NCBI GenBank assembly: GCA_964402035.1
Contig: CAYOAM010000003.1
Span: 7,921-71,920 of the forward strand
Direction of reading: 5' to 3'
Origin: an uncultured Candidatus Saccharibacteria bacterium
Lineage (GTDB): Bacteria > Patescibacteriota > Minisyncoccia > Phycocordibacterales > UBA918
Length of the DNA stretch: 64,000 nucleotides
Made by a program: the position numbers and the translations under genes. Shown piece after piece: positions 13,804 to 38,020 of the stretch (positions within the stretch are counted from its first letter, which is position 1; every line of letters starts with the position of its first letter). The notes under the pieces are model-generated. The model was given only the letters and a program-made list of their open reading frames with translations, did not search any database and had not been told where the DNA came from.

Positions 13804-13837
13804 ATTAGATGTCTACATAAAAATTATTTTCTTCTTC

Positions 13838-14778: not shown

Positions 14779-14800
14779 GAAACTTCATAGGCAGTTCTTT

Positions 14801-15970
14801 TTATAGGGAACCGCCCCGGATATCGACTAGGGTTTGCGAATAGGCGGACAAGCAGTGCTGGGTAAAATCAATACGCTGTGTGAGATCTGCTATATCTGAT
14901 CCCGTAAGAAAACCACCGATCGCCTTTTTTGGTTCAGCGAGCTTTAAGAATCGCCCACCTTTTGTATCAATCACGTATCGATAGAGGTTATTGCTCCCAA
15001 TCTGGAGCCACGACACTTGGGCGATCATGCTATCAATCGTCCCAAGCACAAGTGGTTTTAAAACTTGAGTTTCGTGATTTTCCAAAACACTATACGCACT
15101 TGCGAGTCCCTCTATATAGGGGCAGCGATTGCGCGTCGAGGCTGCATACCGCTTGTTATCAAGGAGTCGCCATGCTGTGTAACGGTCAACATACGAAACG
15201 TAGGCTGGCTGCGGTCGTGTCCTTTCCAAATCTTTGATCGCAGCCATGACCCAAAGATACAGTGGTGCATCAAAAAGCGTGTCGTTATTTAAATACGAGA
15301 ATGTTGTATCAACCATAGTTTTCACTTCAGTGCTCGGTGCATATTGGTCATACCGCACCAATGCTAAAAATGCTTCACCATTTGAAAACGAAGACTCGTC
15401 ATCCTTTTGTTTTTTGCGAGAAGGATAATAGTAGTACCTAAAACCGACATCATCCTTTTTCATTGTCATAATGTACGCCATATAGTCTAAGAGAAGTGGC
15501 TCGTACTTTTTTTTGAGATCGGGATATTCGGTCAAGGTGTTTATGACGCCAATAGCAGCAAGCGCCGTCGCACCTAACTTGCACGAAAAATCCTTCCCCT
15601 CTTTGATACAGCGAAACTCTTGACCAGCATACGAACCTGGGGCAGAAAGTGTTTCGAAGTATCCGATAGACCGCACCAGTTCTTTTTTAAAGTTATACGT
15701 ATTTCCACGATCAAGACGTTCAATTTCTGAAAGTTCAAACAGTGCTCCTGTCTGACGTACGATATTGTCATCATCGCGGTACACGCCTTCGTACGGCAGA
15801 TATTCATAGCGAAAATGCCCATTTTTCTCTTGTGAAGCGGCAAGCCAGAGTGCGCCACCTTTAACACTCTCTCTAAGTGCAGTATCAGAAAGCTTGGCCT
15901 CTGCATGCACCCCAAGCGGTGAAAAAATAAATATTGCTACCAGCAATAATGTGAGGGATTTGTACATCAA
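14801..15970 (-). CDS. Secreted hypothetical protein (possible alpha/alpha-toroid fold)
   Basis: Signal peptide present. One QxxNGxF-type motif reminiscent of prenyltransferase/cyclase repeats was seen. The fold assignment is not secure. Confidence 0.45.
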   Translation of the reverse strand: MMYKSLTLLLVAIFIFSPLGVHAEAKLSDTALRESVKGGALWLAASQEKNGHFRYEYLPYEGVYRDDDNIVRQTGALFELSEIERLDRGNTYNFKKELVRSIGYFETLSAPGSYAGQEFRCIKEGKDFSCKLGATALAAIGVINTLTEYPDLKKKYEPLLLDYMAYIMTMKKDDVGFRYYYYPSRKKQKDDESSFSNGEAFLALVRYDQYAPSTEVKTMVDTTFSYLNNDTLFDAPLYLWVMAAIKDLERTRPQPAYVSYVDRYTAWRLLDNKRYAASTRNRCPYIEGLASAYSVLENHETQVLKPLVLGTIDSMIAQVSWLQIGSNNLYRYVIDTKGGRFLKLAEPKKAIGGFLTGSDIADLTQRIDFTQHCLSAYSQTLVDIRGGSL

Positions 15971-22100: not shown

Positions 22101-22257
22101 TTCAGATTTCTGGAGCCCGCTTGCCTACACCATCATGTTCGGACTGGCCTTTGCGATGATTCTCACCTTGCTCCTTGTACCTACACTCTTCTATAGACAT
22201 GAGAAAAAAGTTCGCCAGAAAGCAACAAAAGCGATAACAGCATCGGGCAAGGCTTAA
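19132..22257 (+). CDS. RND efflux pump permease (AcrB/AcrD/AcrF family)
   Basis: 1041 aa with 12-TM topology and two large periplasmic loops. It lies 6 nt after the MFP gene. Confidence 0.9.
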   Translation: MHWLWNFFLDKRQFSVLFIVALIAIGTYAAFVIPKESAPEVIVPIGIVATVFPGTSASDIEQLITNKLEKKIGDVDNIDTLTSVSRDGVSIITAEFDASADINISIQELKDAVDAGKGELPQDAQDPVVTKVNFSNDPILIVAVSADLAPTEFTRLGEQVATELEAVAGVSQVTISGTQKREVQIVVRPDALRAYNLTLGDISQALRGANIEVPVGIVKNDGIEYAIRFEGSIENPTAIGDIPLASKGGQSIFMRDVALVINGVEQATTLSRVSVDGAPAENAMTLSIFKSAGSDVTAMAPAVRAKIDALTQPDALLADSQVLIVFDQGANVKKDLTDLTTTGFETVLLVVACLLLTIGWRESLVAALSIPLSFVIAFIGLYASGNTINFVSLFALILAIGILVDSGIVVTEAIHTRMRTLGDADKAAREAIREYAWPLIGGTMTTVAVFAPLFFLSGITGEFIASIPYTIIFVLVASILVALGMVPLIAIYLTKHGQSNRLEEMQEVYTHKAQAWYREKLIAFLQNIRAQRIFLWTLALAFFMTLTLPVLGLVNVVFFPPENVDNVYIEVETKQGTTLAETDLSLRAAEEILYELPYVESFTSTAGAGSVFTQSGNAGGKFGNISVTLSETRELRSQEVAILLREELRKITTADFKITEQSNGPPSGAPIVLKFIGGNLEDLALAADNAERLLASIPGTRDIEASTKNSATEIVLSIDHAKANAAGVSPFAVGETLRSAVFGITATTITENGDDVDIVVKLDVGPKTVDAGANPEITLTDLKNVSINTGNGSVLVGSIINEDLASARAAIVHEDEERLETVSAFTTPEVTTLEVTNAFKARESELKLPANVRISYGGETEDINRSFTEMFVALIAGLVLMLTILVLSFNSIRYSLYLLLAVPYSLIGVFIGLAITRQPLSFTSLLGVIALAGVIINHAIILMDSLIVRRDMRADDDLMLIVADGSVSRLRPIFLTTITTIVGMVPLSTISDFWSPLAYTIMFGLAFAMILTLLLVPTLFYRHEKKVRQKATKAITASGKA

Positions 22258-23501: not shown

Positions 23502-25244
23502 TTATTTGTTTACGACATCTGAAATATCAGCAATCTCTTTCATGAGACCTGTCTCAATCTGTGCAACACTTTCTTTAAGTCTTTTCAACAATTTGACTTC
23601 TTCGCGGGTTAACTTTCTTTTGGCGCTCGTCTTTTCTAGCATCTTGATATCGTCTTCAATATCAGATTGCATAAAGGCAAACGATTTTCGTACCAACGCT
23701 TGTGCCTCTGACACTTCTCCACGAATACGTTTTTTAAGATGCACACTACTTCTCCATCCATATACAAGTAGTAGCACAAGCATAAGAAGGAGTGCAAGGA
23801 GTGGTATCACAATCGAGAGTATGGTGATCATCATTGAATCGGTTCGCATGAGTACAGGCGCTACGACCGTAACATGTTTTGTTGCGCTCGGTAGACTCAT
23901 CGCACCACGAGCATCCTGTACGAAGACTGTGTATGAAAAGACACCAACATCGAGCTTTTGTTCAAGAGTAAAATATCCATCAACACCACTTTGACCTGAA
24001 AGGGGAATTGTGTCTCCTTTCTCCGACACCATATTCATCGTAACGGTACTATTTGGATATGTGGTACCTGAAACACGAAAGCGTTCACCTGCAACAATGG
24101 TTTCCGGAACGTCCGTTAGTACCGGTGTATCAATCGGATCAACAGTAAATTCAGCAGCAGCGGTACGATAGTTTCCTGTACGGTCGTACACTTTTGCAAT
24201 CACAATATGCTTCCCAAGAGGGACTACCGGTGTTCGATACTGCGTTTCGTCAGCACCATCAATCGTAACAACGTCTCCGGTATCAATTTGAAGTTCATAT
24301 GATGCAATACCTGAACCACCATCTGTGGCACTCAGTATAAAACCAGCCGTAGGATCAGTATGATCCTCTCGCGTAATAGGACTCAAATCAAAGCTCTCTG
24401 GCTTTCTCGTATCGATATGGAGTGGAAAATGGCTGACTGCACCCCACCCTTCACTGTTTCGCGCTTGCACATGAAAATATGAAATGCCGTCAGTAAGGTC
24501 AGTAATCTCTCGCTCCACAATGGGATTCTGGTAGACCACCGTTGGTATGCTTTCCGCTTTTGCATCAACGAGCGTACGAACACTGGTAACATCATTTTCT
24601 AGAGTCCACGCTAAGCGTGCGGTCGTATCTCGATACCAGGCTTTTGTATCTCCATGCGTTGTCGAGGTCACTTTTGGAGCAGCGGGAGTACCTGCATTAC
24701 TCGGTTCATTGGGAGCAATCTCCTCCTCTACCGCTTTCTCAATAAGCACAAACTGTGCCGTGCCTTTTTTTGAAAGTATGTCGGTACCCTCTCCGTCATT
24801 TGCAAGAGCAGCGGCATCTACAAAACTGAGTGAAGCGCTCCCTGCTTTTTTTACACGAAAATTAATCGTTACAATTTTCCCACTAGCACCGGTAAAACCG
24901 GGATTCAGTACTACTCCTTCAAACGACACCGTACCTGCAGTATTTACAAATACCGGCTCTTCTACCCACAATGAAATAATAGATTGGTTTTTTGAAATCG
25001 AGGTAACTTCCAATGTATCGGGTGGAAACGATACGACTCCTGAAAGCGCATTCACGGCACGATCGCTACTTGCTACATATACTGACACTGCAATGGGATC
25101 TCCAACAGTATACGTACCAGACGCTGGGACAAGTGAAAGATTCGCCGCTGATACAGATAGAGGCGCACAAAAGCAGAGAGCTACGATAATCAGACGGCTG
25201 ATCGACGTCGCCTTCGCAACATAAAAAGACAAAAGATCGCGCAC
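23502..25244 (-). CDS. Cell-surface protein with an N-terminal cohesin-like domain, Ig-like domains, and a C-terminal TM plus coiled-coil tail
   Basis: Signal peptide. Cohesin-like block (ANLSLVPASGTYTVGDPIAVSVYVASSDRAVNALSGVVSFPPDTLEV…SFEGVVLNPGF). The C-terminus has a TM (ITILSIVIPLLALLLMLVLLLVY) and a charged helical segment. Confidence 0.5.
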   Translation of the reverse strand: MRDLLSFYVAKATSISRLIIVALCFCAPLSVSAANLSLVPASGTYTVGDPIAVSVYVASSDRAVNALSGVVSFPPDTLEVTSISKNQSIISLWVEEPVFVNTAGTVSFEGVVLNPGFTGASGKIVTINFRVKKAGSASLSFVDAAALANDGEGTDILSKKGTAQFVLIEKAVEEEIAPNEPSNAGTPAAPKVTSTTHGDTKAWYRDTTARLAWTLENDVTSVRTLVDAKAESIPTVVYQNPIVEREITDLTDGISYFHVQARNSEGWGAVSHFPLHIDTRKPESFDLSPITREDHTDPTAGFILSATDGGSGIASYELQIDTGDVVTIDGADETQYRTPVVPLGKHIVIAKVYDRTGNYRTAAAEFTVDPIDTPVLTDVPETIVAGERFRVSGTTYPNSTVTMNMVSEKGDTIPLSGQSGVDGYFTLEQKLDVGVFSYTVFVQDARGAMSLPSATKHVTVVAPVLMRTDSMMITILSIVIPLLALLLMLVLLLVYGWRSSVHLKKRIRGEVSEAQALVRKSFAFMQSDIEDDIKMLEKTSAKRKLTREEVKLLKRLKESVAQIETGLMKEIADISDVVNK

Positions 25245-26056
25245 ACTATTAGTATACCGACAATTGTGTATTTCGTGATCTCAAATGTCTGTGGATGCAG
25301 TGGATAGACAATAGCGTTTCGCGTGTTACCCACTCGATCAATAGCACGCACATAAATCGTAGAACTAAGTTTTTGATTCTTCAATACATAAGGGCTTTCT
25401 GCCTCTCGCCACCAGCCAAAAACACCCTCCTTTACTTCGTAGTGATCAATACCTGAGCTTTTATCCTCTGTTGAAAAGACGAGAAAGTATGCCCCGTCAA
25501 ATACATCAGCGTCGCGCACTACTTCAGGTCGAAATGCTTCCGGGTCTTCATCGTCCATGACGACACCAGCTGCTGTGTGTGATGGTATACCTGCTCCAAT
25601 TACAATCGGACTTATCACCGGTGAAAAAGGAATCAGGGTTCCTAGACCATCGTTCTTGAGCAATTGCACCGCATCGAGTGTCACTGCTCCTTTACCCAAC
25701 GACTGCGCCTTAAAATAGAGTGTGACGACATCAACCTTCCCCATGAAACCACCGGGCGTAATACCAGAAAAATGTATACCTGCGGCGGTTGCTTCAGGTT
25801 TTGATACCCAAAAATTTAGTACGGACGCACTATCATCAAACCCTTCATACTGCAGCAAGGTTGCTGGATAGGTCATCACAGCCTCAAAAGCGTTTGCAGA
25901 AACATCCGTATCTATACTCAGCGTAACGGCAATGGTTTCTCCTACTGCCCCCTCCATAGGCAGAACAGTTATTTCGCTCGTTGCCGCAAACGATGGCTCA
26001 TATACAGCAAACCCGCCAATCACCAACATCGCAACATATGTGTAAAGTAAATACAT
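25190..26056 (-). CDS. Cohesin-like domain protein, C-terminally TM-anchored
   Basis: SEITVLPMEGAVGETIAVTLSIDTDVSANAFEAVMTYPATLLQYEGF…GIHFSGITPGGF, with a C-terminal TM plus RRRRR stop-transfer sequence. Confidence 0.5.
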   Translation of the reverse strand: MYLLYTYVAMLVIGGFAVYEPSFAATSEITVLPMEGAVGETIAVTLSIDTDVSANAFEAVMTYPATLLQYEGFDDSASVLNFWVSKPEATAAGIHFSGITPGGFMGKVDVVTLYFKAQSLGKGAVTLDAVQLLKNDGLGTLIPFSPVISPIVIGAGIPSHTAAGVVMDDEDPEAFRPEVVRDADVFDGAYFLVFSTEDKSSGIDHYEVKEGVFGWWREAESPYVLKNQKLSSTIYVRAIDRVGNTRNAIVYPLHPQTFEITKYTIVGILIVCAIFCLFMLRRRRRSAV

Positions 26057-26060
26057 ACAG

Positions 26061-27092
26061 CTATCCAGTCCAATAAAAGGCCATGATACTAAAGTCGATA
26101 ATATTTATGACACCATCACCATTGAGTTGTGCAGCCTCTCGAACGGAAAACGACTCACTAAGAGTACGCCGATACCAAAATGCAGCAATTGAAAAGTCGA
26201 TCAAGTTTACCGTGCAATCACCGTTTAGGTCTGCTTTCTTGACGCAGGCATTTGTGCCCACAGTCGCAACATTTTTAGACCCAACCTTAAAGGGTACCTC
26301 AATACTAAACGGGCTTATCTCACTACTGGTCGCCGAACGTGATTTTGTATGGTGATCCCCGAGCACCAACACTGCAGTATCAAAATTGTGCAGATAGGTA
26401 CCACGTACATCTGCAGGAGTCTGCACAAAAAACTGTTGCGGAGATTGTACTTCGAGTGTCACGGTCGAAGCTGGTACACTTTGTCCAAAAAAAGTGATGG
26501 GGTCACCACGACGCACTTCGCTTTTATCAGCGGAAAGTGTCGGCGCTATAAAAACTCCATCGATTTTTGTGAGTACATTGCGCGTGAGTGTAACATCATA
26601 CGGTAACGTTGCCGATCGTTGGTGATGTATGTCTTCGCTAAATAGTACAAAATGGTAACTACCTGACGAAAGTCCACTGATGGTTACCTGAAAATTTGCG
26701 AGTGAACTCGCCACGGTTTTTGCTACCCGTTGTCCATCTTTGAGGATCGTAATCGTGCTACCGGGGTAGGCTCTTCCTTCAAACACTATCGTGGCATTTC
26801 CATTTCCCCCGCTCGACCCGCCGCCACCTCCTCCACCGCCACCTCCTCCTGCTACGCAACTACTGGTATCAAGTTCGCACGCAGCTGTACAAGATAGCGA
26901 CCCCGAAGAAAATCCTTGAGATACACACGTCTTGCCGTCAAAATCCGAACCATCGCATGCTTCACCGACCTCAGCTATTCCATCACCACATCCTGGAACA
27001 ATAGCGACTATATCTACATCTTCCCCGTGGAGGGATATGGGTGCAATTAAGAAACATACTACAGAGAAACTGAGTAGAAAAAGATGACGCAT
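26061..27092 (-). CDS. Secreted dockerin-containing protein with a Myxococcus-type Cys-rich repeat and a poly-Gly linker
   Basis: Cys-rich repeat CGDGIAEVGEACDGSDFDGKTCVSQ…C. Linker of G11-SSGGNG. Two dockerin Ca-binding repeats at the C-terminus (DLNGDCTVNLIDFSIAAF… and LNGDGVINIIDFSIMAF). The start was taken at the internal Met that gives a signal peptide. Confidence 0.6.
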   Translation of the reverse strand: MRHLFLLSFSVVCFLIAPISLHGEDVDIVAIVPGCGDGIAEVGEACDGSDFDGKTCVSQGFSSGSLSCTAACELDTSSCVAGGGGGGGGGGGSSGGNGNATIVFEGRAYPGSTITILKDGQRVAKTVASSLANFQVTISGLSSGSYHFVLFSEDIHHQRSATLPYDVTLTRNVLTKIDGVFIAPTLSADKSEVRRGDPITFFGQSVPASTVTLEVQSPQQFFVQTPADVRGTYLHNFDTAVLVLGDHHTKSRSATSSEISPFSIEVPFKVGSKNVATVGTNACVKKADLNGDCTVNLIDFSIAAFWYRRTLSESFSVREAAQLNGDGVINIIDFSIMAFYWTG

Positions 27093-27102
27093 GAATACAA
27101 CG

Positions 27103-28053
27103 CTAGCGCGAAGCAACACTTCGCGCAATAATCCATTGATTATACTTACGAAGACTGAACCGACCTGCACCCAGCAACAAGATCACAATACTGAGTAATT
27201 GCCAAGGAATGATAAAGAAATGATAGCTATTTTGATTTTTGGTATCAGTAGTCCCCCACGACAAATCAAGCACGGCCGTGTACCAACCAAAATGAAAATC
27301 ACTCAATTGTCGCTTGGCTATAGCAAAAAAACCTTCAGCTTTTGGTTCCAATATTTTCCACGTTGATTCAAAGCGTCGAGCACTATTGGGCAAAACACTC
27401 CCTTCGCTCTCATTTGCTGAAAATGTAGTAACGGTACTTCTAAAACTATTTTTTACACCCACTGTTCCTCGCGGCACAATACGATCACCACCGGTGTTGT
27501 TTATGCGATACGAAAATGCAATAGGTAGCTGAGAAAAAAACCTGCCTCCCGGAGCATTAAACTCAAGAACACCACCCCCTTCTTCGATGTCTCCCGCAAC
27601 GCGCAAAAAGACCAAGACGCCAAGCCTTCCACCAATAGAAACTTCACCACCCTCTTGCGTTTTTGGATCTTGTCCACCAAAAAATACAGCAGCAAAATAA
27701 CCGCCCGGTTCAGTTTCTTTTGGTATCGTTATCGAAAGAGGAATCTTAATGCGCTCAAGTGGAGCAAGCGAGACACGACCTCCTGCTTGCATCCAGGTTG
27801 CGAGGCCGTCCTTCGCTCCGACAAAATACGGAGATCCAGTATCGCCGCTCGGTTCAAAATTTTCGTACGAGGGGTAAAATTCTTTTGGCTCGTTTTGTTC
27901 ATTGAGGAGTTCAATGTCAGTGTAGAGTGTCTGTCCTGGGTTCCCAGTTATTTCGATCTTTACGGGAGACAGTGTAAGCGCCTCGACGTGTGGCGCGTGT
28001 AAAATCACCGCACACACCACAAGACCAAAAAATATTCTAAAATTGTATTTCAT
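27103..28053 (-). CDS. Secreted beta-rich protein with a C-terminal TM anchor (accessory protein of the surface locus)
   Basis: Signal peptide, Gly-rich beta-strand pattern, C-terminal TM (HFFIIPWQLLSIVILLLGAG) and a basic tail. Confidence 0.45.
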   Translation of the reverse strand: MKYNFRIFFGLVVCAVILHAPHVEALTLSPVKIEITGNPGQTLYTDIELLNEQNEPKEFYPSYENFEPSGDTGSPYFVGAKDGLATWMQAGGRVSLAPLERIKIPLSITIPKETEPGGYFAAVFFGGQDPKTQEGGEVSIGGRLGVLVFLRVAGDIEEGGGVLEFNAPGGRFFSQLPIAFSYRINNTGGDRIVPRGTVGVKNSFRSTVTTFSANESEGSVLPNSARRFESTWKILEPKAEGFFAIAKRQLSDFHFGWYTAVLDLSWGTTDTKNQNSYHFFIIPWQLLSIVILLLGAGRFSLRKYNQWIIARSVASR

Positions 28054-28098
28054 GGAGTTTTCTCCATACTATAAGTATCGAGCAGAGAATGCAACCGA

Positions 28099-29172
28099 CT
28101 AATAATTGGCCGTTGCCGTGTATGTGAGGGTCGCGCTATAACTTCCTGCCTCTGTGTTTGAGCCAATGTTCGCAAGGTAGCGAGCTGAATAGGTAGTATT
28201 TGCGGTCGCTACCGTTGATGTAGCTACCGTATCAGGAAAAGCGCCAGAATCAAATGCAAAGCCCGAGGCCGCATACGGCGCATTGACCGCACCATTACCA
28301 CCTGCCGCTGTCAAACGCAGTCCGAACTGCTCAGTACCAACAGATGAGGCTGAGTTTGAGGCGCCAATTGCAGTAATCGTGTTCCCACCAGAGGTTAGGG
28401 TATTTCCGTTCAACGTGAGCGAATATCCATTACTTGCATTTGTGCCAACAATCAAATTGTGTGCCTCGACTTCTGATGTGTCACCCGACGCCGTACCCGA
28501 TGCGTATCGTGCAGCGCCAGAGGTCAATGTACCAAAACTGATGCTATTGTCTGAAATACTGAAGGTAATGGACTGAGCGACGGTAGCCGAAATAGCCACC
28601 TGGTCATCGTTCACAATACTGACGGTGATATCTCCAGAGTCAAAACCGTTACCACTTATGGCGATTCCGTATGACGTTGCCACGCTTGGATTGGTCGAAC
28701 TGGCGGCAGTAAAAGAGAAGATCAGTACATCATTGGGGTCGACAGCAGCTGCACCAATTCCATCGGTAGGTGCTGTGAAAGTCCACACACGGCCCTGTGT
28801 TCCTGTTGTAGCTACAGCCCAGCGTGATCCATCAGCAACACCATGCAACGTTTCTGTCGTCTCAAGACCAGTGGAAGGGCCATGGGTAAATGTCACCGAT
28901 GTAGTCGCCTTTCCCGTAAAGTTAAAATCCGATGGGAACGTAATAACAATGGTGTCGGTATTGTCGCTCGCACCTGTTGGGCTCGTGAATTTGATCGAGT
29001 GAGTCGATGTTGCAGGGCTAATCTTGGACGAGGACATTGTATCCGATGCGCTCGTTATTGATGCGGCATGAACGGTGACTCGTGGAAATACCCACGCTAC
29101 GAGCATAGCAATCACCAAGAGAGCACTCAAAGCAGCCCGACGAGAAAAAATATGGGTTACATTCATATGCAT
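28099..29172 (-). CDS. Secreted two-domain protein with a C-terminal TasA/camelysin-like domain (putative fibre/pilin-like subunit)
   Basis: The C-terminal 170 aa are homologous to the C-terminus of the giant protein. The motif ITFSISDNSISFGTL resembles the FFSDKEVSNNTFAAGTLDL motif of TasA/CalY. Confidence 0.5.
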   Translation of the reverse strand: MHMNVTHIFSRRAALSALLVIAMLVAWVFPRVTVHAASITSASDTMSSSKISPATSTHSIKFTSPTGASDNTDTIVITFPSDFNFTGKATTSVTFTHGPSTGLETTETLHGVADGSRWAVATTGTQGRVWTFTAPTDGIGAAAVDPNDVLIFSFTAASSTNPSVATSYGIAISGNGFDSGDITVSIVNDDQVAISATVAQSITFSISDNSISFGTLTSGAARYASGTASGDTSEVEAHNLIVGTNASNGYSLTLNGNTLTSGGNTITAIGASNSASSVGTEQFGLRLTAAGGNGAVNAPYAASGFAFDSGAFPDTVATSTVATANTTYSARYLANIGSNTEAGSYSATLTYTATANY

Positions 29173-29242
29173 AATATTATACGTATGATTATATGCTACT
29201 TACGCGATAAATTATGACAGCACGTTGGGATAACTGTTAATA

Positions 29243-32200
29243 CTAAAAAGTGGCAGTGACTGTGTAGGTAATCACCGAAGTATAATTCCCCGCCTCCGTC
29301 ATACTCTCTATATTCCCAAGATAATATGCATCATAGATCGTGGCTGTTCCATCACCATCACCGGTCCCAATCTCATCGGGGAACGAAGACGTCGCAAAAG
29401 CAAAGGTAGCTGCACTGTATGGTGGTGTCGAGAGCCCTGTCCCAGAAATGACATTGAGCCGCACGCCAAATTGCTCCGTCCCAGGGCTTGATATGGTGGC
29501 TGTTTCGCCAATAGGATTTATGGTAGCTATATCGTAGGTCAAGGTACTGCCATTTATTGACATGCGGTACCCACCCAGTGCATTGGTGACCACAGAAATG
29601 CTATGCGCTGGCTCACTCGGAGACGTTGTGCCAAGGATATCCCCCGTTGCGTAGCGTGCTTCGAGCGCTGAAAGAGTGCCAAAACCGACGGTATTATCGG
29701 ATATGCTCATAGTTATGTAGTTTTCAGGTTCTTTCTCAATCCACCGCACACTAACCATCGCAAAATCCCAGTCACGTCCCACTCCCCCAACCACGTTCGT
29801 TGAGACTGAGGTACGCAAACGCAAGTTCATCAAGTTGTTTTGGGTATCCACAAAGTCGTCTGCTGATTCTTGCTGCTCTGCGACACGCCACGTATCAAAC
29901 CAGCTGTACGATGTTGCGGCATTGGTATCGGTGCCCGGTGTGTTGATCCAGCCTGAACCAACCTCTTCACCTCCAAGACCTGAGTTGCCGGCATAGTCTT
30001 TCATCTGTACGTCATTGGTGAGTGACGCAATATTGGATCGATGCTTCACCGCATAGTGAATACCGGTAATAGAAGTCGAGGACGCCACCGTCATGGGAAA
30101 AGAGAGATTTTGCGAGAACGCATACTCGGCATTCACCGTATCGTCGTCATTGTCTTGTGGGTAGTGGTCGACGGGATATTCGATCGCTGTCGTTGCATTC
30201 CACGTTGAGGTCAACGTGGTGCCCGTGATCGCTTCAGCGGTACTGCGAGTTCTTGTACACTCAGATGCAGTACCACTTCCCCATGATATTTCGCAGAGTG
30301 CTGAATCAGTATTGACGGAACCCACCATCATATAGATGCGATCAAACTGAAGGTTCGCGAGTGCCGCAGGACCGTTGGTGGTAAAGCCCACGCGGACTTC
30401 ACCGGTTGGTGAGATGTAGTCATCAAAGACAAAGCCGGGTATCAAGGTGTCGTTGAAACTGAACGCAAGTTCGATATCAGTGGTACACGCTGAGGCGAAG
30501 ACCGTCGATGACGCTGCTGTCCACACACTGTTTTGAAAATCCCAAAGCGAAATGGAGAAACTTAATCCCGTATTGTTTTTGCACACCTCGGGCTGCACCA
30601 AAAAGGTGTTCATACCCGCAAGCGTCTTCACGTTGGTGAATGAGAAGTAGAAACTGATGGGGGTTGAGGTCGCAGCCATATACACAGTGAATTTGTTGCC
30701 ATCAGATCCAGTGAGTGTCGTACCGATAGCGCCCACGAGGTCTGAGATGAAGTTTGAACTTGTTGCGGCGGTCGTCGTCGCGAAGCCTGATGGTTCATAT
30801 ATGGGATCAATGGCAACTTCGAGCTGCGCAAAATCGGTTTGATGTGCAGTGACCGAATTCACGGTTGAGTAGGTGCGCACAATGACGCGCTTGCTTGATG
30901 TGGTTGAAGCGAAGTTTGAGAGTGGTGTACTAATGACCGTACCGGGAGTCACGGTGCGGGTGGAAAAATAGCCATTGTATATTTCATACGTGCGCTGGGT
31001 ATCGGAGGTGTTGGTGTGATTCGTGCGTCGTGGTTGGAGTGTGCGCCACCCACCACCGGTACATTCACTATCAGCAGCATTATCAACGCCGGTGCTTGAG
31101 ACCCAATCACAGATCTGATGGGTGTATGCATCACCGGTCGTAATGTTGGTGTCTTCAAGTGTGATGAGCATTTTGTTTGCGCCATAGAGGTTGACGCTAT
31201 CAAAATAGATTTGCTTGTCCAAGCCTGAGGTGGTGCGAGTTGCCGTCCAATAGTTGCCGTCGTTCCCCAAGGTCGCTCGCCACGAGTCGAGGTGGTTTAA
31301 GTTGGTCGAGGTCGCAACACCGACGATGAGGGCGCCACCGGTGGGGGCGTATTGGGAAGTCTCGGTTACACGGCGTGGTTCATCAATCCACCGCACACTA
31401 ACCATCGCAAAATCCCAGTCACGTCCCACTCCCCCAACCACGTTCGTTGAGACTGAGGTACGCAAACGCAAGTTCATCAAGTTGTTTTGGGTATCCACAA
31501 AGTCGTCTGCTGATTCTTGCTGCTCTGCGACACGCCACGTATCAAACCAGCTGTACGATGTTGCGGCATTGGTATCGGTGCCCGGTGTGTTGATCCAGCC
31601 TGAACCAACCTCTTCACCTCCAAGACCTGAGTTGCCGGCATAGTCTTTCATCTGTACGTCATTGGTGAGTGACGCAATATTGGATCGATGCTTCACCGCA
31701 TAGTGAATACCGGTAATAGAAGTCGAGGACGCCACCGTCATGGGAAAAGAGAGATTTTGCGAGAACGCATACTCGGCATTCACCGTATCGTCGTCATTGT
31801 CTTGTGGGTAGTGGTCGACGGGATATTCGATCGCTGTCGTTGCATTCCACGTTGAGGTCAACGTGGTGCCCGTGATCGCTTCAGCGGTACTGCGAGTTCT
31901 TGTACACTCAGATGCAGTACCACTTCCCCATGATATTTCGCAGAGTGCTGAATCAGTATTGACGGAACCCACCATCATATAGATGCGATCAAACTGAAGG
32001 TTCGCGAGTGCCGCAGGACCGTTGGTGGTAAAGCCCACGCGGACTTCACCGGTTGGTGAGATGTAGTCATCAAAGACAAAGCCGGGTATCAAGGTGTCGT
32101 TGAAACTGAACGCAAGTTCGATATCAGTGGTACACGCTGAGGCGAAGACCGTCGATGACGCTGCTGTCCACACACTGTTTTGAAAATCCCAAAGCGAAAT

Positions 32201-33178
32201 GGAGAAACTTAATCCCGTATTGTTTTTGCACACCTCGGGCTGCACCAAAAAGGTGTTCATACCCGCAAGCGTCTTCACGTTGGTGAATGAGAAGTAGAAA
32301 CTGATGGGGGTTGAGGTCGCAGCCATATACACAGTGAATTTGTTGCCATCAGATCCAGTGAGTGTCGTACCGATAGCGCCCACGAGGTCTGAGATGAAGT
32401 TTGAACTTGTTGCGGCGGTCGTCGTCGCGAAGCCTGATGGTTCATATATGGGATCAATGGCAACTTCGAGCTGCGCAAAATCGGTTTGATGTGCAGTGAC
32501 CGAATTCACGGTTGAGTAGGTGCGCACAATGACGCGCTTGCTTGATGTGGTTGAAGCGAAGTTTGAGAGTGGTGTACTAATGACCGTACCGGGAGTCACG
32601 GTGCGGGTGGAAAAATAGCCATTGTATATTTCATACGTGCGCTGGGTATCGGAGGTGTTGGTGTGATTCGTGCGTCGTGGTTGGAGTGTGCGCCACCCAC
32701 CACCGGTACATTCACTATCAGCAGCATTATCAACGCCGGTGCTTGAGACCCAATCACAGATCTGATGGGTGTATGCATCACCGGTCGTAATGTTGGTGTC
32801 TTCAAGTGTGATGAGCATTTTGTTTGCGCCATAGAGGTTGACGCTATCAAAATAGATTTGCTTGTCCAAGCCTGAGGTGGTGCGAGTTGCCGTCCAATAG
32901 TTGCCGTCGTTCCCCAAGGTCGCTCGCCACGAGTCGAGGTGGTTTAAGTTGGTCGAGGTCGCAACACCGACGATGAGGGCGCCACCGGTGGGGGCGTATT
33001 GGGATACCGCAAGCGCTTTCTTGCCCACCGTCTCCTCAAGCAGAACATGTTGTACTTCCTTCCCATTCATAATCCAACGATGGAGATACCCAGTCTCAGA
33101 GAGTGACGAAAACAAAGCAAGTATGGCTACCATACCCACCACCATGCCCACTTTTTTGATACACAGATGCGCTACCAT
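29243..33178 (-). CDS. Giant secreted repeat protein (1311 aa): 2 x 549-aa identical repeats plus a C-terminal TasA/camelysin-like domain
   Basis: N-terminal signal-anchor. Two identical 549-aa repeats (SQYAPTGGALIVG…DWDFAMVSVRWI). The C-terminus (ITMSISDNTVGFGTL…EAGNYTSVITYTVTATF) is homologous to 28099-29172. Confidence 0.7.
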   Translation of the reverse strand: MVAHLCIKKVGMVVGMVAILALFSSLSETGYLHRWIMNGKEVQHVLLEETVGKKALAVSQYAPTGGALIVGVATSTNLNHLDSWRATLGNDGNYWTATRTTSGLDKQIYFDSVNLYGANKMLITLEDTNITTGDAYTHQICDWVSSTGVDNAADSECTGGGWRTLQPRRTNHTNTSDTQRTYEIYNGYFSTRTVTPGTVISTPLSNFASTTSSKRVIVRTYSTVNSVTAHQTDFAQLEVAIDPIYEPSGFATTTAATSSNFISDLVGAIGTTLTGSDGNKFTVYMAATSTPISFYFSFTNVKTLAGMNTFLVQPEVCKNNTGLSFSISLWDFQNSVWTAASSTVFASACTTDIELAFSFNDTLIPGFVFDDYISPTGEVRVGFTTNGPAALANLQFDRIYMMVGSVNTDSALCEISWGSGTASECTRTRSTAEAITGTTLTSTWNATTAIEYPVDHYPQDNDDDTVNAEYAFSQNLSFPMTVASSTSITGIHYAVKHRSNIASLTNDVQMKDYAGNSGLGGEEVGSGWINTPGTDTNAATSYSWFDTWRVAEQQESADDFVDTQNNLMNLRLRTSVSTNVVGGVGRDWDFAMVSVRWIDEPRRVTETSQYAPTGGALIVGVATSTNLNHLDSWRATLGNDGNYWTATRTTSGLDKQIYFDSVNLYGANKMLITLEDTNITTGDAYTHQICDWVSSTGVDNAADSECTGGGWRTLQPRRTNHTNTSDTQRTYEIYNGYFSTRTVTPGTVISTPLSNFASTTSSKRVIVRTYSTVNSVTAHQTDFAQLEVAIDPIYEPSGFATTTAATSSNFISDLVGAIGTTLTGSDGNKFTVYMAATSTPISFYFSFTNVKTLAGMNTFLVQPEVCKNNTGLSFSISLWDFQNSVWTAASSTVFASACTTDIELAFSFNDTLIPGFVFDDYISPTGEVRVGFTTNGPAALANLQFDRIYMMVGSVNTDSALCEISWGSGTASECTRTRSTAEAITGTTLTSTWNATTAIEYPVDHYPQDNDDDTVNAEYAFSQNLSFPMTVASSTSITGIHYAVKHRSNIASLTNDVQMKDYAGNSGLGGEEVGSGWINTPGTDTNAATSYSWFDTWRVAEQQESADDFVDTQNNLMNLRLRTSVSTNVVGGVGRDWDFAMVSVRWIEKEPENYITMSISDNTVGFGTLSALEARYATGDILGTTSPSEPAHSISVVTNALGGYRMSINGSTLTYDIATINPIGETATISSPGTEQFGVRLNVISGTGLSTPPYSAATFAFATSSFPDEIGTGDGDGTATIYDAYYLGNIESMTEAGNYTSVITYTVTATF
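29746..33003. repeat. Perfect tandem direct repeat, unit 1647 bp, about 2 copies, in-frame within the giant gene
   Basis: Identical embedded ORFs lie exactly 1647 bp apart (30628-30831 = 32275-32478; 30949-31203 = 32596-32850). The sequence blocks are identical by eye (e.g. 29746… = 31393…). Confidence 0.9.
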
Positions 33179-33179
33179 A

Positions 33180-34748
33180 TTATTTCTCTACAATCGGATC
33201 AGACTCAATAACAAATGAAATGTCGTCAGGTTCTAGCGATACGTCATATGTTTCTTGCTCAAGTTGCAACTGTGTATCCCCACGAATTTCACGGGTCTGA
33301 GAAAACATTGTCCGCGCATTAGTATCAAAACCGACAAATGCACCCCCTTCTGCGGATGCCCAGATCACTTTCCCTTCTACATACTCAAACGGTGAATCAA
33401 GCAACATGGTTGTGTTGTCGGCGAGTTTTAAGAAACCAATCGCACTTCCGAGCGCATGCTCCTTGAGCCACGCTTCGGTACCACCTTCTCTTGTACGTAT
33501 AAAATAGAGCGTTTTCCCTTGATCTAATGGCTGTATTTGCGTTACAAATCCTCCCACGAAAAATAATCTTTCATGTACCACCATACGTTCTGCAGTATCA
33601 GTTTGAAAACGAAGCATGTGGGGACCTGGATCTACTAATGCTTGCAGCGTCACCGCATACGTATCTTCATCAATGCCGACCACGGTATGAGGGACAAGCA
33701 CTCCATCCACATACACCGTTGTTGATGCTTGTGGAGCAGGCGGAGTCGAAGCACTGGTGGTTGCGTTTGAAGAACTTGTAGCAGTTGTCTCAACGGTGTC
33801 AGGCTCATCATGAAGCACCTCTATATCTACTACCTCGTCACTGTTGGTCTGCACTGTTGTCTGATCGACCTCCTCGTGCTCAGTTTCAATCTGATCCACA
33901 GCATGCTCGACGTCACTATCACTTAGGTTCTGAATCGCAGGATCAGCTTCACTTTGTTCTATAGTCGAGACGGATTCCAGTGTGCCTACATCTACTGAAA
34001 CCTCGGCAGGCAACTCTTGAGGAATCTCCGCTAAAGCCGGCGAAGAATCTTCAGTGACTTCTTCTGGCGCTATATCTATGATCAAACTAAACAACGTCTC
34101 AACCGTTGGTTGCATAAACTCAATGACGGTCTGCGCAGCGTCAGAGACCATGTCTACTATGGTCTCTGCAGCGTCAGCAACCTGCGTAACAGTGTCTGAA
34201 ATGGTGCCTTGTATGGCAGCAAAGAATCCTTCTTTTGTGGTACTTCCTTGGTTAAAAATAAAAGTAGGCAGTGTACTCATCTCAAAAAACGCCGCATTCG
34301 CAATCTCGGCCTCAGAGTATAGTGTTGTGGTCGCAGATGTCGTTGCAATAGGCTGGGGTAACACCGCAATATCTTGTACGACGTCAGGCACTACCGGCAA
34401 CACCGGTTCCGATAGCACCGGCACAAGTTCCGCATCTTCAAAACCAACCTCCACATCACTATTGATTGGCAGATCAACATCATCTGGCGCGGAAGAGACT
34501 ATAAATTCACTCGGTTGCGATGGAGGATCAGCTATCGTTTCGGTGCCTTGTCCAATATCTTCCGCAACTGGAGGTATTTCATTCTCGGGTGCAATATCGA
34601 TGGGTGTCGTCTCTAGAGCAGGCGATGTCGCACCAACCTCTTCTATCTCTTCTGCATAAGTAAAAGAAACATAAAAAAAGTTGTACGCGAGTACCAGTAT
34701 CACGCATAACCACAGAAAAAAATTCTCCTTTCCTCGAAAGAAATTCAC
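33180..34748 (-). CDS. Extremely acidic secreted protein (Asp/Glu/Pro/Val-rich) with a folded C-terminal domain
   Basis: N-terminal TM/signal and about 350 aa of acidic low-complexity sequence. The C-terminal 170 aa form a non-repetitive domain. Its stop abuts the giant gene's start, suggesting an operon. Confidence 0.55.
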   Translation of the reverse strand: MNFFRGKENFFLWLCVILVLAYNFFYVSFTYAEEIEEVGATSPALETTPIDIAPENEIPPVAEDIGQGTETIADPPSQPSEFIVSSAPDDVDLPINSDVEVGFEDAELVPVLSEPVLPVVPDVVQDIAVLPQPIATTSATTTLYSEAEIANAAFFEMSTLPTFIFNQGSTTKEGFFAAIQGTISDTVTQVADAAETIVDMVSDAAQTVIEFMQPTVETLFSLIIDIAPEEVTEDSSPALAEIPQELPAEVSVDVGTLESVSTIEQSEADPAIQNLSDSDVEHAVDQIETEHEEVDQTTVQTNSDEVVDIEVLHDEPDTVETTATSSSNATTSASTPPAPQASTTVYVDGVLVPHTVVGIDEDTYAVTLQALVDPGPHMLRFQTDTAERMVVHERLFFVGGFVTQIQPLDQGKTLYFIRTREGGTEAWLKEHALGSAIGFLKLADNTTMLLDSPFEYVEGKVIWASAEGGAFVGFDTNARTMFSQTREIRGDTQLQLEQETYDVSLEPDDISFVIESDPIVEK

Positions 34749-34803
34749 CCACTAATCATAACAGCTGATGGTGGGTGGACGCTGTGTTATCAACGCACAA
34801 TAG

Positions 34804-35340
34804 CTAGTGTTCCTGCTGTCTACGAATAAATAACATTAAAACCGCAATCATCGCAAAGAGCGATACGGCCATCAAGGGAAATGTGATGTACCCAAACTCA
34901 AACACAATGCGTTCTGCACACTCGACCCCAGGAGCTGCGGTAGGACACACAATAAACGGCGAGCCGCCCATCTGCAAATAATGGTGATAGAGAGCGATCA
35001 CGCCTCCCACAAAAGACAGACCGAGAATATAATCTGCAATATTTTTATCATGCTTCCATAGTGCCATGCCTGAGAGGAGTGCTATGGGATAGAGTGCGAT
35101 ACGCTCAAACCAACACAAGCCACAGGGTGTAAAACCAAATACTTCTGAATACACCAAAGTCAGTATAATACCCGCGATCGATAGCAAAAATACTTTAAGA
35201 AGCGCAAATCTCCCCACAAAATTGCGAAGCTCGGTAAAATCAGCTTTTTTAAGTACGATAAAAAGCGCTACTGCACCGACCTGGAGACCAATGGTACCGA
35301 CCGCCAGTAGATAATTTATATCCGCTATGTAGTCAAGCAT
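34804..35340 (-). CDS. dsbB: Disulfide bond formation protein B (DsbB/BdbC family)
   Basis: 4 TM. First loop Cys pair CGLCWFERIALYP (compare E. coli DsbB C-x-x-C…YER). Second Cys pair CPTAAPGVEC. Confidence 0.7.
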   Translation of the reverse strand: MLDYIADINYLLAVGTIGLQVGAVALFIVLKKADFTELRNFVGRFALLKVFLLSIAGIILTLVYSEVFGFTPCGLCWFERIALYPIALLSGMALWKHDKNIADYILGLSFVGGVIALYHHYLQMGGSPFIVCPTAAPGVECAERIVFEFGYITFPLMAVSLFAMIAVLMLFIRRQQEH

Positions 35341-35345
35341 AGATA

Positions 35346-35720
35346 TTATTTCGGAAGCTCACAGCTTGTCGTTTCTGCAAGCTCTTTGAGTGTCAGCTCG
35401 CCACTCTTCCTCGTGCCATCCTTAAATATCCAGAGCGGATACCCTTCTACCTTTGCATCAATACACACTTGTGTCTGGTTCTTACGATCCGGGGTTGAAC
35501 ACTCAATATAGGGAAGTTTTTTTTGTGAGTTACCAAAGATTGCCTTTTGTGATTGGCAATGTGGACACCAAAATGCGCCATAGAACTTTGCTCCAGCATC
35601 AGTGAGACACTGCGCAAACCCATCAAGTTTTCCCGGCAATGTCTTCGTCCAAACGATGGTGCCAATAAAAAGGACAACCAATAGTATAAGCCCCACAAAC
35701 CATCCATATTTTTTGACCAT
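35346..35720 (-). CDS. Membrane-anchored thioredoxin-fold thiol-disulfide oxidoreductase (DsbA/BdbD-like)
   Basis: N-terminal TM. CxxC active site FWCPHCQSQ in a thioredoxin-fold context. Lies 6 nt upstream of the DsbB gene. Confidence 0.75.
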   Translation of the reverse strand: MVKKYGWFVGLILLVVLFIGTIVWTKTLPGKLDGFAQCLTDAGAKFYGAFWCPHCQSQKAIFGNSQKKLPYIECSTPDRKNQTQVCIDAKVEGYPLWIFKDGTRKSGELTLKELAETTSCELPK

Positions 35721-35763
35721 ATAGGAACTATACTACCCTAATAAACCCTCCCTTGTCCAAAAA

Positions 35764-36198
35764 CTACAAAAAGTAAAAGCCTATTACTGCGGCACCAATC
35801 CACCCCATCGTTGAAAGCGATCCGCTTAACAACAATGACAGACGTTCACGCGGCGCAAGGTCTGAAAACGGACGCTCGGTGGCTATAGGGGTCAAGCGAC
35901 CAATAAAAACACCATTCACGATAAGTACGAGCACAAAGCCCATTTTGATCAGAAAGGAAGGTTCGCTAATATAATATTCCCACGCAGGGAGTGCAAGTTT
36001 TAAGCCCGACGCAATCATAATGAGAAGTCCCGCCCACACCACGTAGTGCAGCAGCTCCATTTTTCTCTTATCGAGTAGCTGTTTTTTGCCTCGAAAATAC
36101 GAAAATGCCTCATGATCCGAGTAGAGTATGACGAGTGCCGTTATACCCAAAGTCCACAGATGTATAGTGACGGGATTCATAAATGCAGATACTACCAT
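35764..36198 (-). CDS. 4-TM membrane protein, first gene of the DsbB/Trx operon
   Basis: Hydrophobic profile only. Confidence 0.4.
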   Translation of the reverse strand: MVVSAFMNPVTIHLWTLGITALVILYSDHEAFSYFRGKKQLLDKRKMELLHYVVWAGLLIMIASGLKLALPAWEYYISEPSFLIKMGFVLVLIVNGVFIGRLTPIATERPFSDLAPRERLSLLLSGSLSTMGWIGAAVIGFYFL

Positions 36199-36301: not shown

Positions 36302-37525
36302 ATGCAAAACGATAAACTATCCGTGCGGTATATCATCGTGAGTAGCGCACTTTCAGTGGTCATAACGTTATATATCCTTTGGCTGCTCACCATATATGTA
36401 CCGGAGAAGATCGCGAACATTCTTCACATTCCCACCACAACAGAGACACTTTCTGCTACCGAGTCTCATACGCAAGCAGCGATACCTGATATCGTTGAGC
36501 GCGCAGCACCAGCAGTCGTATCAGTGGTCATCTCTGCAAACGTCCCAGTCGTAGAACGCTACTTTGAAAACTATGATCCATTTAAGGATTTCTTCGGTGG
36601 AGGTTTTGGATTCCAAATCCCACAGCAGCGACAGATCGGGACAGAGAAACGAGAAATTGGCGGGGGGACCGGATTCTTTGTATCAAAAGATGGATACATA
36701 ATCACCAATCGTCACGTCGTCGATACAGAGAAAGCGGACTATTCAGTTGTCACCAACGAAGGGAAAACATACGATGTCGAGGTTATAGCAAAAGATCCAT
36801 CGCTCGATATTGCCGTACTCAAAGTAAAAAAGGCAGATCAAGAATTTCCCTTCCTCAGTTTTGGTGATAGTAGCGCATTGCGTCTTGGTTCGTCCGTCAT
36901 TGCTATCGGTAATGCGCTTGCAGAATTCCCGAATACGATATCCGTTGGCGTGATCTCTGGGCTCTCGCGACACATCACCGCAGGCGACCGTGGGGGAAAA
37001 ACTGAAAACCTTGACGGACTTATCCAGACTGATGCCGCAATAAACCAAGGGAACTCCGGTGGACCACTCCTTGATATGCAGGGTACGGTCATCGGTGTCA
37101 ATGTCGCCGTTGCTGGAAATTCAGAAAATATAGGATTCGCACTTCCCGTAGACATGGTCAAAAATGTGTACGCAAGTGTTGAGCAATTTGGCGAGATCAT
37201 CCGACCGTACATCGGCGTACGGTATGTAGACATAAACGAGGCTCTCAAAAAAGCAAACAATTTGTCAGTTGATTATGGAATACTCGTTATCCGTGGAGAA
37301 AACCGTACCGACCTTGCCGTCATACCCGGCTCCCCCGCTGACAAAGCAGGTATCGAAGAAAATGACATAATTCTTGAGATGGATGGAAAAAAACTTAACG
37401 GAAAGGAAAATTTTGCACAAATCATCCGCGATCATAACGTAGGTGATACCGTAACGCTCAAACTCCTCCATGATGGAAAGGAACGTGAGATCGAAGTGAC
37501 GCTCGAAAAAATGCCGAATGGGTAG
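36302..37525 (+). CDS. htrA: Serine protease HtrA/DegP family (trypsin-like + PDZ)
   Basis: N-terminal TM. Catalytic triad context (…TNRHVV…D…GNSGGPLLD) and a C-terminal PDZ. Confidence 0.9.
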   Translation: MQNDKLSVRYIIVSSALSVVITLYILWLLTIYVPEKIANILHIPTTTETLSATESHTQAAIPDIVERAAPAVVSVVISANVPVVERYFENYDPFKDFFGGGFGFQIPQQRQIGTEKREIGGGTGFFVSKDGYIITNRHVVDTEKADYSVVTNEGKTYDVEVIAKDPSLDIAVLKVKKADQEFPFLSFGDSSALRLGSSVIAIGNALAEFPNTISVGVISGLSRHITAGDRGGKTENLDGLIQTDAAINQGNSGGPLLDMQGTVIGVNVAVAGNSENIGFALPVDMVKNVYASVEQFGEIIRPYIGVRYVDINEALKKANNLSVDYGILVIRGENRTDLAVIPGSPADKAGIEENDIILEMDGKKLNGKENFAQIIRDHNVGDTVTLKLLHDGKEREIEVTLEKMPNG

Positions 37526-37553
37526 CATACAGCCTGTTGGTCTCGCTCGACGT

Positions 37554-37597
37554 AACAAGCACAAAAAAATCGCCTCTGGGCGATTTTTTTGTGCTTG
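37554..37597. terminator. Bidirectional Rho-independent terminator between htrA and hsp20
   Basis: Extended palindrome caagcacaaaaaaatcgcc-tctg-ggcgatttttttgtgcttg. Confidence 0.75.
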
Positions 37598-38020
37598 TTA
37601 CTTTTTAACAGTTATCTTTATTCGTTTCTCTTCCTTCTCTGCCTGCTTTGGCATCGTAACCTTTAGTACACCACCTTCATAGACCGCTTGCACCCCATCT
37701 TGATTGACCGTACTAGGTAACGATATGACGCGCTCAAAAGTGCCACGTCTAATCTCCTTGGCATAATGATTTTTTTCTTTTTTCTCCTGCACCTCTTCCC
37801 GCTTTCCAGATACACGCAGATGCGTCTCCTCGACTTCGATATCAATGTCATCAGGAGACATACCTGGAATATTCATCTCTGCAACAATGTTATTTCCATC
37901 TTCGTAGACATCTGCCGCAAGATCAAAACTCATGTTTTGCATCCGCAACGTTGGCAACCCAGACACATCTCTAAAAATGCGATCAAATTCCTCGAACGGT
38001 TCCCATTTAATAAGTGACAT
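37598..38020 (-). CDS. Small heat-shock protein, Hsp20/alpha-crystallin family
   Basis: Alpha-crystallin domain (…DIDIEVEETHLRVSGKREEV…YAKEIRRGTFERVISLP…AVYEGGVLKVTMPK). Confidence 0.9.
   Translation of the reverse strand: MSLIKWEPFEEFDRIFRDVSGLPTLRMQNMSFDLAADVYEDGNNIVAEMNIPGMSPDDIDIEVEETHLRVSGKREEVQEKKEKNHYAKEIRRGTFERVISLPSTVNQDGVQAVYEGGVLKVTMPKQAEKEEKRIKITVKK

Follow-up and report, generated by a model that had tools for sequence, protein, structure and literature searches.

Bacteria of the Candidate Phyla Radiation (CPR), or Patescibacteria, make up much of bacterial diversity and seem in most cases to live attached to host cells. The locus that is the subject of this work lies in a 64,000-nucleotide stretch (the window) of contig CAYOAM010000003.1, from assembly GCA_964402035.1 of an uncultured Candidatus Saccharibacteria bacterium, and was singled out from the sequence alone as encoding a surface assembly of small-genome bacteria, a setting that agrees with the placement of the organism in the CPR. 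It comprises ten consecutive open reading frames (ORFs) on the minus strand, named G1 (35764-36198) down to G10 (23502-25244), which were verified between positions 23502 and 36198, exactly where this original prediction had placed them; neighbouring frames overlap by as much as 55 nt or are separated by gaps of up to 70 nt. The genes G5 to G10 very probably constitute a locus for a pilus of the Pam family, known from Candidatus Mycosynbacter amalyticus (Saccharimonadia) through a 2026 cryo-electron microscopy (cryo-EM) preprint and represented in NCBIfam by NF058581 and NF058579 (bioRxiv 10.64898/2026.03.03.709456).

The labels first given to the products of G1-G5 (membrane protein, thioredoxin, DsbB, acidic protein and 1311-aa repeat protein) are supported by hidden Markov model (HMM) matches and sequence features, as listed in Table 1. 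Signal peptides are recognisable in the G5, G6 and G8 sequences, and a hydrophobic helix terminates each of G7, G9 and G10. Pfam and NCBIfam searches of the ten proteins yielded no match to sortase, SipW/signal peptidase or pilus ATPase families, as had been noted from the sequence, nor to any usher family, and detected no glycoside hydrolase or carbohydrate-binding module domain; in addition, G6, whose C-terminus reads ...TYTATANY, carries no sorting signal. The locus was compared with 43 loci (designated L plus a number) from species-representative genomes, each including 10-kb flanks, by tblastn and ORF-level blastp. The window is also represented, with an identical sequence, in a metagenome contig of 461.7 kb in ENA (L045).

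Table 1. Features of the ten-gene locus and their positions in the window; aa positions refer to the respective protein.
Feature	Position	Strand	Basis or remark
G1, membrane protein	35764-36198	-	144 aa, at least 2 hydrophobic segments
G2, thioredoxin-fold protein, N-terminal membrane anchor, CPHC motif	35346-35720	-	Pfam Thioredoxin, 25.7 bits (cutoff 23.5)
G3, DsbB/BdbC-like oxidoreductase	34804-35340	-	Pfam DsbB, 6.9e-14
G4, acidic protein, N-terminal membrane anchor or signal	33180-34748	-	isoelectric point (pI) 4.05, 18% Asp+Glu
G5, putative tip adhesin, 1311 aa	29243-33178	-	NF058581, 56.1 bits (cutoff 55)
G5 C-terminal Pam pilin domain	aa 1155-1311, nt 29246-29716	-	NF058581
G5 internal perfect tandem duplication	29736-31357 = 31383-33004, span 29736-33004	.	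1622 bp, period 1647 bp
G6, major pilin, 357 aa	28099-29172	-	NF058581, 80.4 bits (cutoff 55)
G6 N-terminal beta-sandwich; C-terminal Pam pilin domain	aa ~37-190; aa 200-357		AlphaFold2 (AF2); NF058581
G6 linker/putative donor strand QVAISATV	aa 191-198, nt 28579-28602	-	motif kept in orthologues
G7, membrane-anchored assembly factor, two immunoglobulin-like (Ig-like) domains, C-terminal membrane helix	27103-28053	-	putative chaperone
G8, putative pilus terminator/adaptor	26061-27092	-	Dockerin_1, 25 bits (cutoff 22.9)
G8 N-terminal donor-like strand VDIVAIV	aa 26-32, nt 26997-27017	-	linker-like motif
G8 C-terminal dockerin	aa 287-337, nt 26082-26234	-	Dockerin_1
G9, short membrane-anchored cohesin protein	25190-26056	-	Cohesin below Pfam cutoff (G9 and G10: 17.8 and 22.8, cutoff 24.1)
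G9 cohesin; membrane helix	aa 34-122, nt 25691-25957; aa 257-283	-	Cohesin; hydrophobicity
G10, long membrane-anchored cohesin protein	23502-25244	-	Cohesin below Pfam cutoff; Big_13 in orthologues
G10 cohesin, then Big_13 Ig-like domains and membrane helix	aa 44-151, nt 24792-25115; helix aa 468-503	-	Cohesin
G10 cytoplasmic tail, ~77 aa	after the membrane helix	-	predicted

The pilin G6, the putative tip protein G5 and the linker strand

G6 and the C-terminus of the giant G5 protein are 49% identical over 157 aa, a relationship that the original prediction had recognised. The region in question corresponds to NF058581, the NCBIfam model designated 'CPR_Pam_pilin_C, Pam pilus system pilin subunit', which is matched by 36 of the 37 G6 orthologues with a best E-value of 5.8e-46. 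Judged by sequence, the domain common to G6 and the G5 C-terminus is a member of the Pam pilin family, and this membership bears out the expectation of a surface fibre or adhesin assembly; the system can no longer be called undescribed, as it had been, since its domain is catalogued under NF058581 and a cryo-EM description of such pili dates from 2026. The proposal that the subunits are TasA-like has to be abandoned, given that SipW is missing and that Peptidase_M73/TasA produced no match even at E<=10 in the 37 pilin orthologues. The WxL domain (PF13731) was likewise unmatched at E<=10 in the same sequences. A profile of the pilin family retrieved nothing from the PDB, although the latter includes 9i25, a long WxL chain, and PDB searches with the single sequences of G6, G7 and the G5 module gave nothing meaningful. 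G6 has more than 1040 homologues, all of them unannotated, and its mature form contains no Cys.

Pam pilins consist of an N-terminal beta-sandwich and a single linker strand, together with a C-terminal domain, and the linker completes the C-terminal domain of the neighbouring subunit (bioRxiv 10.64898/2026.03.03.709456). The same succession of beta-sandwich, linker and C-terminal domain is found in G6, the C-terminal fold being modelled without confidence. In the AF2 monomer, the N-terminal domain reaches predicted local distance difference test (pLDDT) values of approximately 90, the linker is a coil, and linker and C-terminal domain stay below 50; the low confidence of the latter would fit, without proving it, an incomplete fold that needs the donor strand of a neighbour. 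A fold search with this model returned only weak, generic Ig-like matches (BslA, Gram-positive pilins), with neither a Pam entry nor TasA among them, and is uninformative because the C-terminal half of the model is of low confidence.

Directly before the C-terminal domain, the linker of the G6 orthologues contains a conserved strand with the consensus DDQVxVSATVxQ, and 33-35 of the 37 pilins have the motif V-x-[VIL]-x-[AGS]-x-V, which can be summarised more narrowly as V-x-[VI]-[ST]-A-x-V. It is absent from the position before the C-terminal domain in G5 and in all 18 upstream Pam-domain tip proteins of related loci, this number comprising those in which the start of the Pam domain was recognisable. 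Lacking the motif, the tip proteins would be able to accept a strand and unable to donate one, and it is by this property that a tip subunit is defined. The role of G5 as a tip is proposed by analogy with PamT; the PamT equivalog model itself (cutoff 240) gives a score of 37.8 for G6 and no match for G5, and no tip protein reaches the cutoff.

The N-terminal parts of the tip proteins are hypervariable among genomes, and the proteins range from 182 to 2095 aa. In G5 this part is built from two identical 549-aa modules with six Cys each (12 in total). The corresponding protein of L046, a sister assembly from another sample that is 99.9% identical, has a single module and 747 aa, and the tip proteins of L032 and L037 each have two modules, mutually 82% and 73% identical, respectively. 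Copy-number variation, recent gene conversion and an assembly effect are candidate explanations for the perfect duplication in G5.

The membrane-anchored factor G7 and the dockerin protein G8

The AF2 model of G7 (mean pLDDT 86.8) displays two beta-sandwich domains followed by the membrane helix, in agreement with its initial description as a membrane-anchored, beta-rich protein. Foldseek places RbmA on top (3e-11), and also retrieves CfaA, CsuC, FimC and EcpB. G7 itself has no match in Pfam, and NCBIfam holds no relevant model for its family; WxLIP_PGBD (DUF916), in turn, matches 6 of 43 close-relative and 30 of 43 divergent-relative G7 sequences (best 2.9e-7), and the sole meaningful match of a profile of the divergent set in the PDB is EfmWxLIP1 (E=0.002). 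WxLIP, which is composed of DUF916 (PGBD), DUF3324 (HBD) and a membrane helix (PMC10599100; PDB entries for WxL clusters, 9i1y and 9i25), is the nearest relative of G7 among solved proteins in both sequence and structure, and sequence comparison points to G7 as a remote homologue of it. The modelled fold alone leaves G7 as either a chaperone (PamC/D-like) or an anchor (PamR-like), of which the former is taken here as its likely activity. At least 512 homologues share 50-58% identity with G7, those with names belonging to Kaiser-, Taylor- and Nomurabacteria, Paceibacterota or Parcubacteria, and the G7-family profile finds 7892 representatives of 50%-identity clusters at E<=1e-3 and 978 at E<=1e-30, which makes this family very large. 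In L011, a hybrid ORF (10970-11929) with a G8-like N-part and a G7-like C-part is located between regular G7 and G8 orthologues.

The homology to WxLIP evokes an arrangement in which no filament is formed. Firmicute WxL clusters typically encode one WxLIP together with a small and a large protein that have a C-terminal domain in common, into which a strand of WxLIP is predicted to insert (PMC10599100). The gene content of the present locus mirrors this commonest cluster, and G7 could likewise hold G5 and G6 permanently at the surface, with one of its strands inserted in the C-terminal domain of each. Such a static complex is nonetheless improbable, in view of the fact that the family of this C-terminal domain has members that were seen as filaments by cryo-EM, and that a linker strand is conserved in the pilin, missing from the tip proteins and accompanied by no Pfam WxL domain at E<=10 in the pilin orthologues; the polymeric pilus is thus the preferred reading.

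Behind its signal peptide, G8 has a donor-like strand, a module rich in Cys and a linker of poly-Gly, and then Ig-like domains and the dockerin. All 36 orthologues are matched by Big_6, and seven Cys are invariant. The original prediction had described a dockerin protein with a Myxococcus-type Cys-rich repeat; the dockerin stands, and the repeat (DUF4215) occurs in 15 of the 36 orthologues and not in the window protein itself. The pilin linker motif reappears at the mature N-terminus of G8, directly after the signal peptide, in 36/36 orthologues, where its consensus is ITVEITATVPG, and is found at the N-terminus of 0/43 G7, 1/35 G9 and 0/24 G10 proteins. Furthermore, when a 13-column HMM of the pilin linker was run on all 1706 ORFs of the 43 loci, ranks 1-37 were occupied by the G6 orthologues, and 15 of the next 19 matches, outside this group, fell on mature N-termini of G8.

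The C-terminal dockerin of G8 shows the two Ca-binding repeats expected of such a domain. Dockerin_1 matches 34 of the 36 orthologues, with a best E-value of 3.6e-11, and a profile of the G8 family matches solved dockerins (2y3n_B, 2.7e-4). As for its potential partners, the Cohesin family is matched by 15 of 35 G9 orthologues (best 2.1e-9) and by 13 of 24 G10 orthologues (best 7.7e-8), the latter also containing Big_13 in 21 of 24 cases, and the G9-family profile matches solved cellulosomal cohesins (5aoz, 1e-3). Across the loci, the two domains vary together without exception: all 35 loci with a G8 dockerin also have downstream cohesin genes, and in the six loci with a dockerin-less G8-like protein, which are not all phylogenetically independent, no cohesin gene is found within at least 8 kb. 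This joint presence and joint absence gives comparative backing to the cohesin-dockerin tethering that had been suggested from the sequence. In L031, a locus without cohesin genes, the G8 orthologue (1056-2123) has a C-terminal membrane helix and a basic tail in the place of the dockerin, which is the architecture described for PamR, and this swap of anchoring modules argues that the dockerin-cohesin pair is a membrane anchor.

Short dockerin-less G8-like proteins that retain the N-terminal donor-like strand are encoded in L038, L040 and L041 (~10958-11668, 4981-5664 and 9500-10210, respectively), where the G8-like gene is followed by a convergent gene whose product has a dCache_1 sensor domain in addition to two membrane helices.

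Gene order and neighbouring genes

The order of the genes is strict, with a variable tip that bears the Pam C-terminal domain being followed by the pilin, G7, G8, G9 and G10; the full set is present in approximately 34 of the 43 loci, and the pilin-G7 pair is found wherever the sequence covers its position. In L043 (8902-13213, titled Peregrinibacteria), the pilin and G7 occur together with a Pam-domain protein of 748 aa, encoded on the opposite strand, and G8-G10 are missing, which suggests that tip, pilin and G7 form the minimal core.

Such a content would also agree with two independent modules that lie side by side, one being a Pam-like pilus (G5-G7) anchored by G7, and the other a separate module (G8-G10) that displays G8, or further dockerin proteins, as its cargo. 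This possibility draws further support from the top rank of RbmA among the Foldseek matches of G7, PamR being, according to its description, an RbmA-like protein that ends in a membrane helix, and from L035, where the G8 and G9 orthologues are separated by a second dockerin protein of 956 aa with a right-handed beta-helix domain (11985-14855); other cargo may also be taken by the cohesin anchors. The division is unlikely, however, in the light of the position of G8 directly after G7 in 42 of the 43 loci, and of the linker-like strand that every G8 orthologue possesses, dockerin-less ones included, and that no G7 protein does. A single system that extends from G5 to G10 is favoured.

The limits of this system are set by the absence of the four remaining genes from its relatives. 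Up to a distance of 10 kb from the core, none of the 43 loci showed a counterpart of G1, G2, G3 or G4, even at E<=1e-3, and co-conservation is confined to G5-G10. The Dsb pair is consequently not a dedicated, co-conserved part of the pilus system. The earlier view, in which all ten genes formed a new, self-contained system with TasA-like subunits and a Dsb pair of its own, had in its favour the single strand, the short junctions and the Cys-rich proteins G5 and G8, which could make use of such a pair; with G1-G4 missing from all related loci, no Peptidase_M73/TasA signal and a pilin domain already catalogued as Pam, it has become very improbable. G1-G3 are neighbouring general oxidative-folding machinery outside the conserved core of the Pam-type locus, although the G1-G4 neighbours may help to fold the Cys-rich G5 and G8.

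The membership of G4 in the system is uncertain. A large or giant tip gene is preceded, in approximately 10 loci, by a nearby gene for an acidic protein (pI 4.05-4.5, 410-580 aa) that has a membrane anchor at its N-terminus, the two genes being directly adjacent in several of these loci; examples are L032:1368-3008, L037:3079-4824 and L017:3779-5308, and G4 is alike in position, size and charge. Homology between G4 and these proteins was considered and rejected, as neither hmmsearch nor hhalign detected any.

Additional genes occur in the surroundings of the core. A conserved secreted protein of ~395 aa, Gly-rich and tail-fibre-like, is encoded ~3.5 kb upstream of G7 in L035 (4229-5416) and in 12 other loci; it has no Pfam match and no counterpart in the window. 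A 'tail fibre-like protein' is named in pam neighbourhoods (bioRxiv 10.64898/2026.03.03.709456). In the window, at 36302-38020, an HtrA/DegP-like protease (plus strand) is divergent from G1 and is followed by Hsp20 on the minus strand, and a transporter of the RND/AcrB type is encoded downstream of the locus at 19132-22257. Rfam detected one tRNA only, distant from the locus, and a scan for promoters and terminators produced site counts equal to the shuffled expectation. Its top sigma-70-like match (29211-29240, minus strand, 10/12, with an extended -10 TG) falls in the G5-G6 gap just upstream of G6, and is not evidence alone.

A model for pilus assembly and its place among known systems

The features described above can be brought together in a model in which all components, with their visible signal peptides, would be exported by Sec. 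G7, held in the membrane by its C-terminal helix, would cap the incomplete C-terminal Ig-like domain of fresh subunits. The fibre would start with G5, the distal adhesin, which offers an acceptor domain and no donor strand, and would grow by polymerisation of G6, each linker strand (QVxVSATV) entering the C-terminal domain of the preceding subunit. Growth would be stopped by G8, whose mature N-terminus would mimic the pilin linker and occupy the last acceptor groove, and whose dockerin would bind the cohesin that G9 and/or G10 present at the membrane, tying the fibre to the cell.

A number of points weigh against this model. Every protein-protein contact between the products of G5-G10 is one that we infer, what is shown being the family assignments, the gene order, the distribution of the linker motif and the joint occurrence of dockerin and cohesin genes. 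The window copies of G9 and G10 have Cohesin scores of 17.8 and 22.8, under the Pfam cutoff of 24.1, with the consequence that the original description of two cohesin-like, membrane-anchored proteins is backed by the orthologues and not by the window scores, whereas the dockerin exceeds its cutoff in the window itself. Single scores of the linker HMM on G8 are weak (E 0.01-5), the signal being strong only as an enrichment, and the strand of G8 could simply belong to the Cys-rich domain of this protein, as the first strand there. The resemblance of the G7 model to RbmA, as well as to chaperones, means that G7 could be a PamR-like anchor, or both anchor and chaperone. Lastly, the low pLDDT of the G6 C-terminal domain may come from a shallow or redundant alignment.

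The confidence that can be placed in the whole reflects that of its parts. The assignment of G5-G10 to the Pam family is the firmest of these, and the case for the specific adaptor-anchor mechanism, by way of the G8 strand and the dockerin-cohesin pair, is evenly balanced; it follows that the complete statement, namely that of an usher-less, donor-strand-exchange CPR Pam pilus in a variant that is widespread in Paceibacteria/Parcubacteria-type genomes and is assembled as proposed, is favoured with moderate confidence. To our knowledge, no pilus has been described in which a donor-strand adaptor is coupled to a cohesin-dockerin anchor. If true, the mechanism would provide a new biological role for the cohesin-dockerin interaction, as a naturally modular 'plug' for which a membrane helix substitutes in one relative. 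A broader conjecture, to be regarded as tentative, is that a cohesin-dockerin joint fixes a donor-strand-exchange pilus via G8 and that, in addition, CPR Pam pili and WxL clusters are branches of one ancient usher-less strand-complementation superfamily of single-membrane bacteria.

Among the systems that come to mind for comparison, sortase-dependent pili of Gram-positive bacteria differ from the locus, which has no sortase family match and no LPXTG sorting signal on G6. TasA/camelysin fibres of Bacillus and archaeal bundling pili are, like the proposed pilus, usher-less extracellular fibres formed by donor-strand complementation, but the locus displays neither homology to Peptidase_M73 nor SipW, and its domain architecture is another one. 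Cellulosome systems have in common with it a type-I-like dockerin with two Ca-binding repeats, cohesins, and a secreted protein anchored to a cell-bound scaffold; here, by contrast, the cohesins are attached by a membrane helix, not through SLH or sortase, and the docked partner is seemingly the base of a pilus. A cellulosome reading was rejected because the locus contains no carbohydrate-active enzymes.

The chaperone-usher pili (Pap/Fim, CFA/I, Csu) are closer in their assembly principle, with donor-strand complementation and exchange, a PapD-like two-domain fold, a tip adhesin that does not donate and a dedicated terminator. They differ in possessing an usher and an outer membrane, both foreign to the present locus, whose donor strand is an internal linker and not an N-terminal extension and whose putative chaperone is anchored in the membrane. 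With the WxL clusters, the locus shares the same cluster logic as well as the nearest solved relative of G7, which is WxLIP; its partner proteins have no detectable WxL domain, no WxL filament is known, and WxL clusters do not include cohesin or dockerin. The remote homology between G7 and WxLIP, which is not mentioned in the Pam preprint, ties the system to the WxL surface clusters known from enterococci, listeria and lactobacilli.

The Pam pilus itself is the closest counterpart. Its operon encodes the linker-less tip pilin PamT, the pilins PamA, PamB and PamE, the membrane-anchored, PapD/FimC-like chaperones PamC and PamD, and PamR, an RbmA-like terminator with an N-terminal inserting strand and a C-terminal membrane helix, and includes no usher (bioRxiv 10.64898/2026.03.03.709456). 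A putative tip protein without linker, a factor in which two Ig-like domains precede a membrane helix at the C-terminus, the lack of usher, sortase and ATPase, and a CPR lineage are common to both systems. The present locus differs in having one pilin instead of PamA/B/E and one G7 instead of PamC plus PamD. The combination of strand and membrane helix seen in PamR is present in no window protein; G8 unites strand and dockerin, with two membrane-anchored cohesin proteins alongside, and it is the L031 orthologue that has the helix. In addition, the putative tip is a giant protein built of modules, Cys is missing from the mature pilin, as opposed to 2-3 Cys pairs in PamA/B, and the lineage is of the Paceibacteria type. 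The preprint and its supplement make no mention of cohesin, dockerin, Dsb, WxL or Paceibacteria (bioRxiv 10.64898/2026.03.03.709456), and no paper connecting cohesin or dockerin with CPR pili was found in the literature searched. The kind of system is therefore known already from the preprint and from NCBIfam, and the form described here is set apart by having only one pilin and only one G7, by a dockerin adaptor that is accompanied by two cohesin anchors, by tips that are giant and modular, and by a Paceibacteria-type distribution. The Pam pilus family thus reaches Paceibacteria-type lineages in a distinct form, for which a minimal and complete division of roles among tip, pilin, chaperone, adaptor and anchor can be proposed, and whose hypervariable modular tips are obvious candidates for the determination of host specificity.

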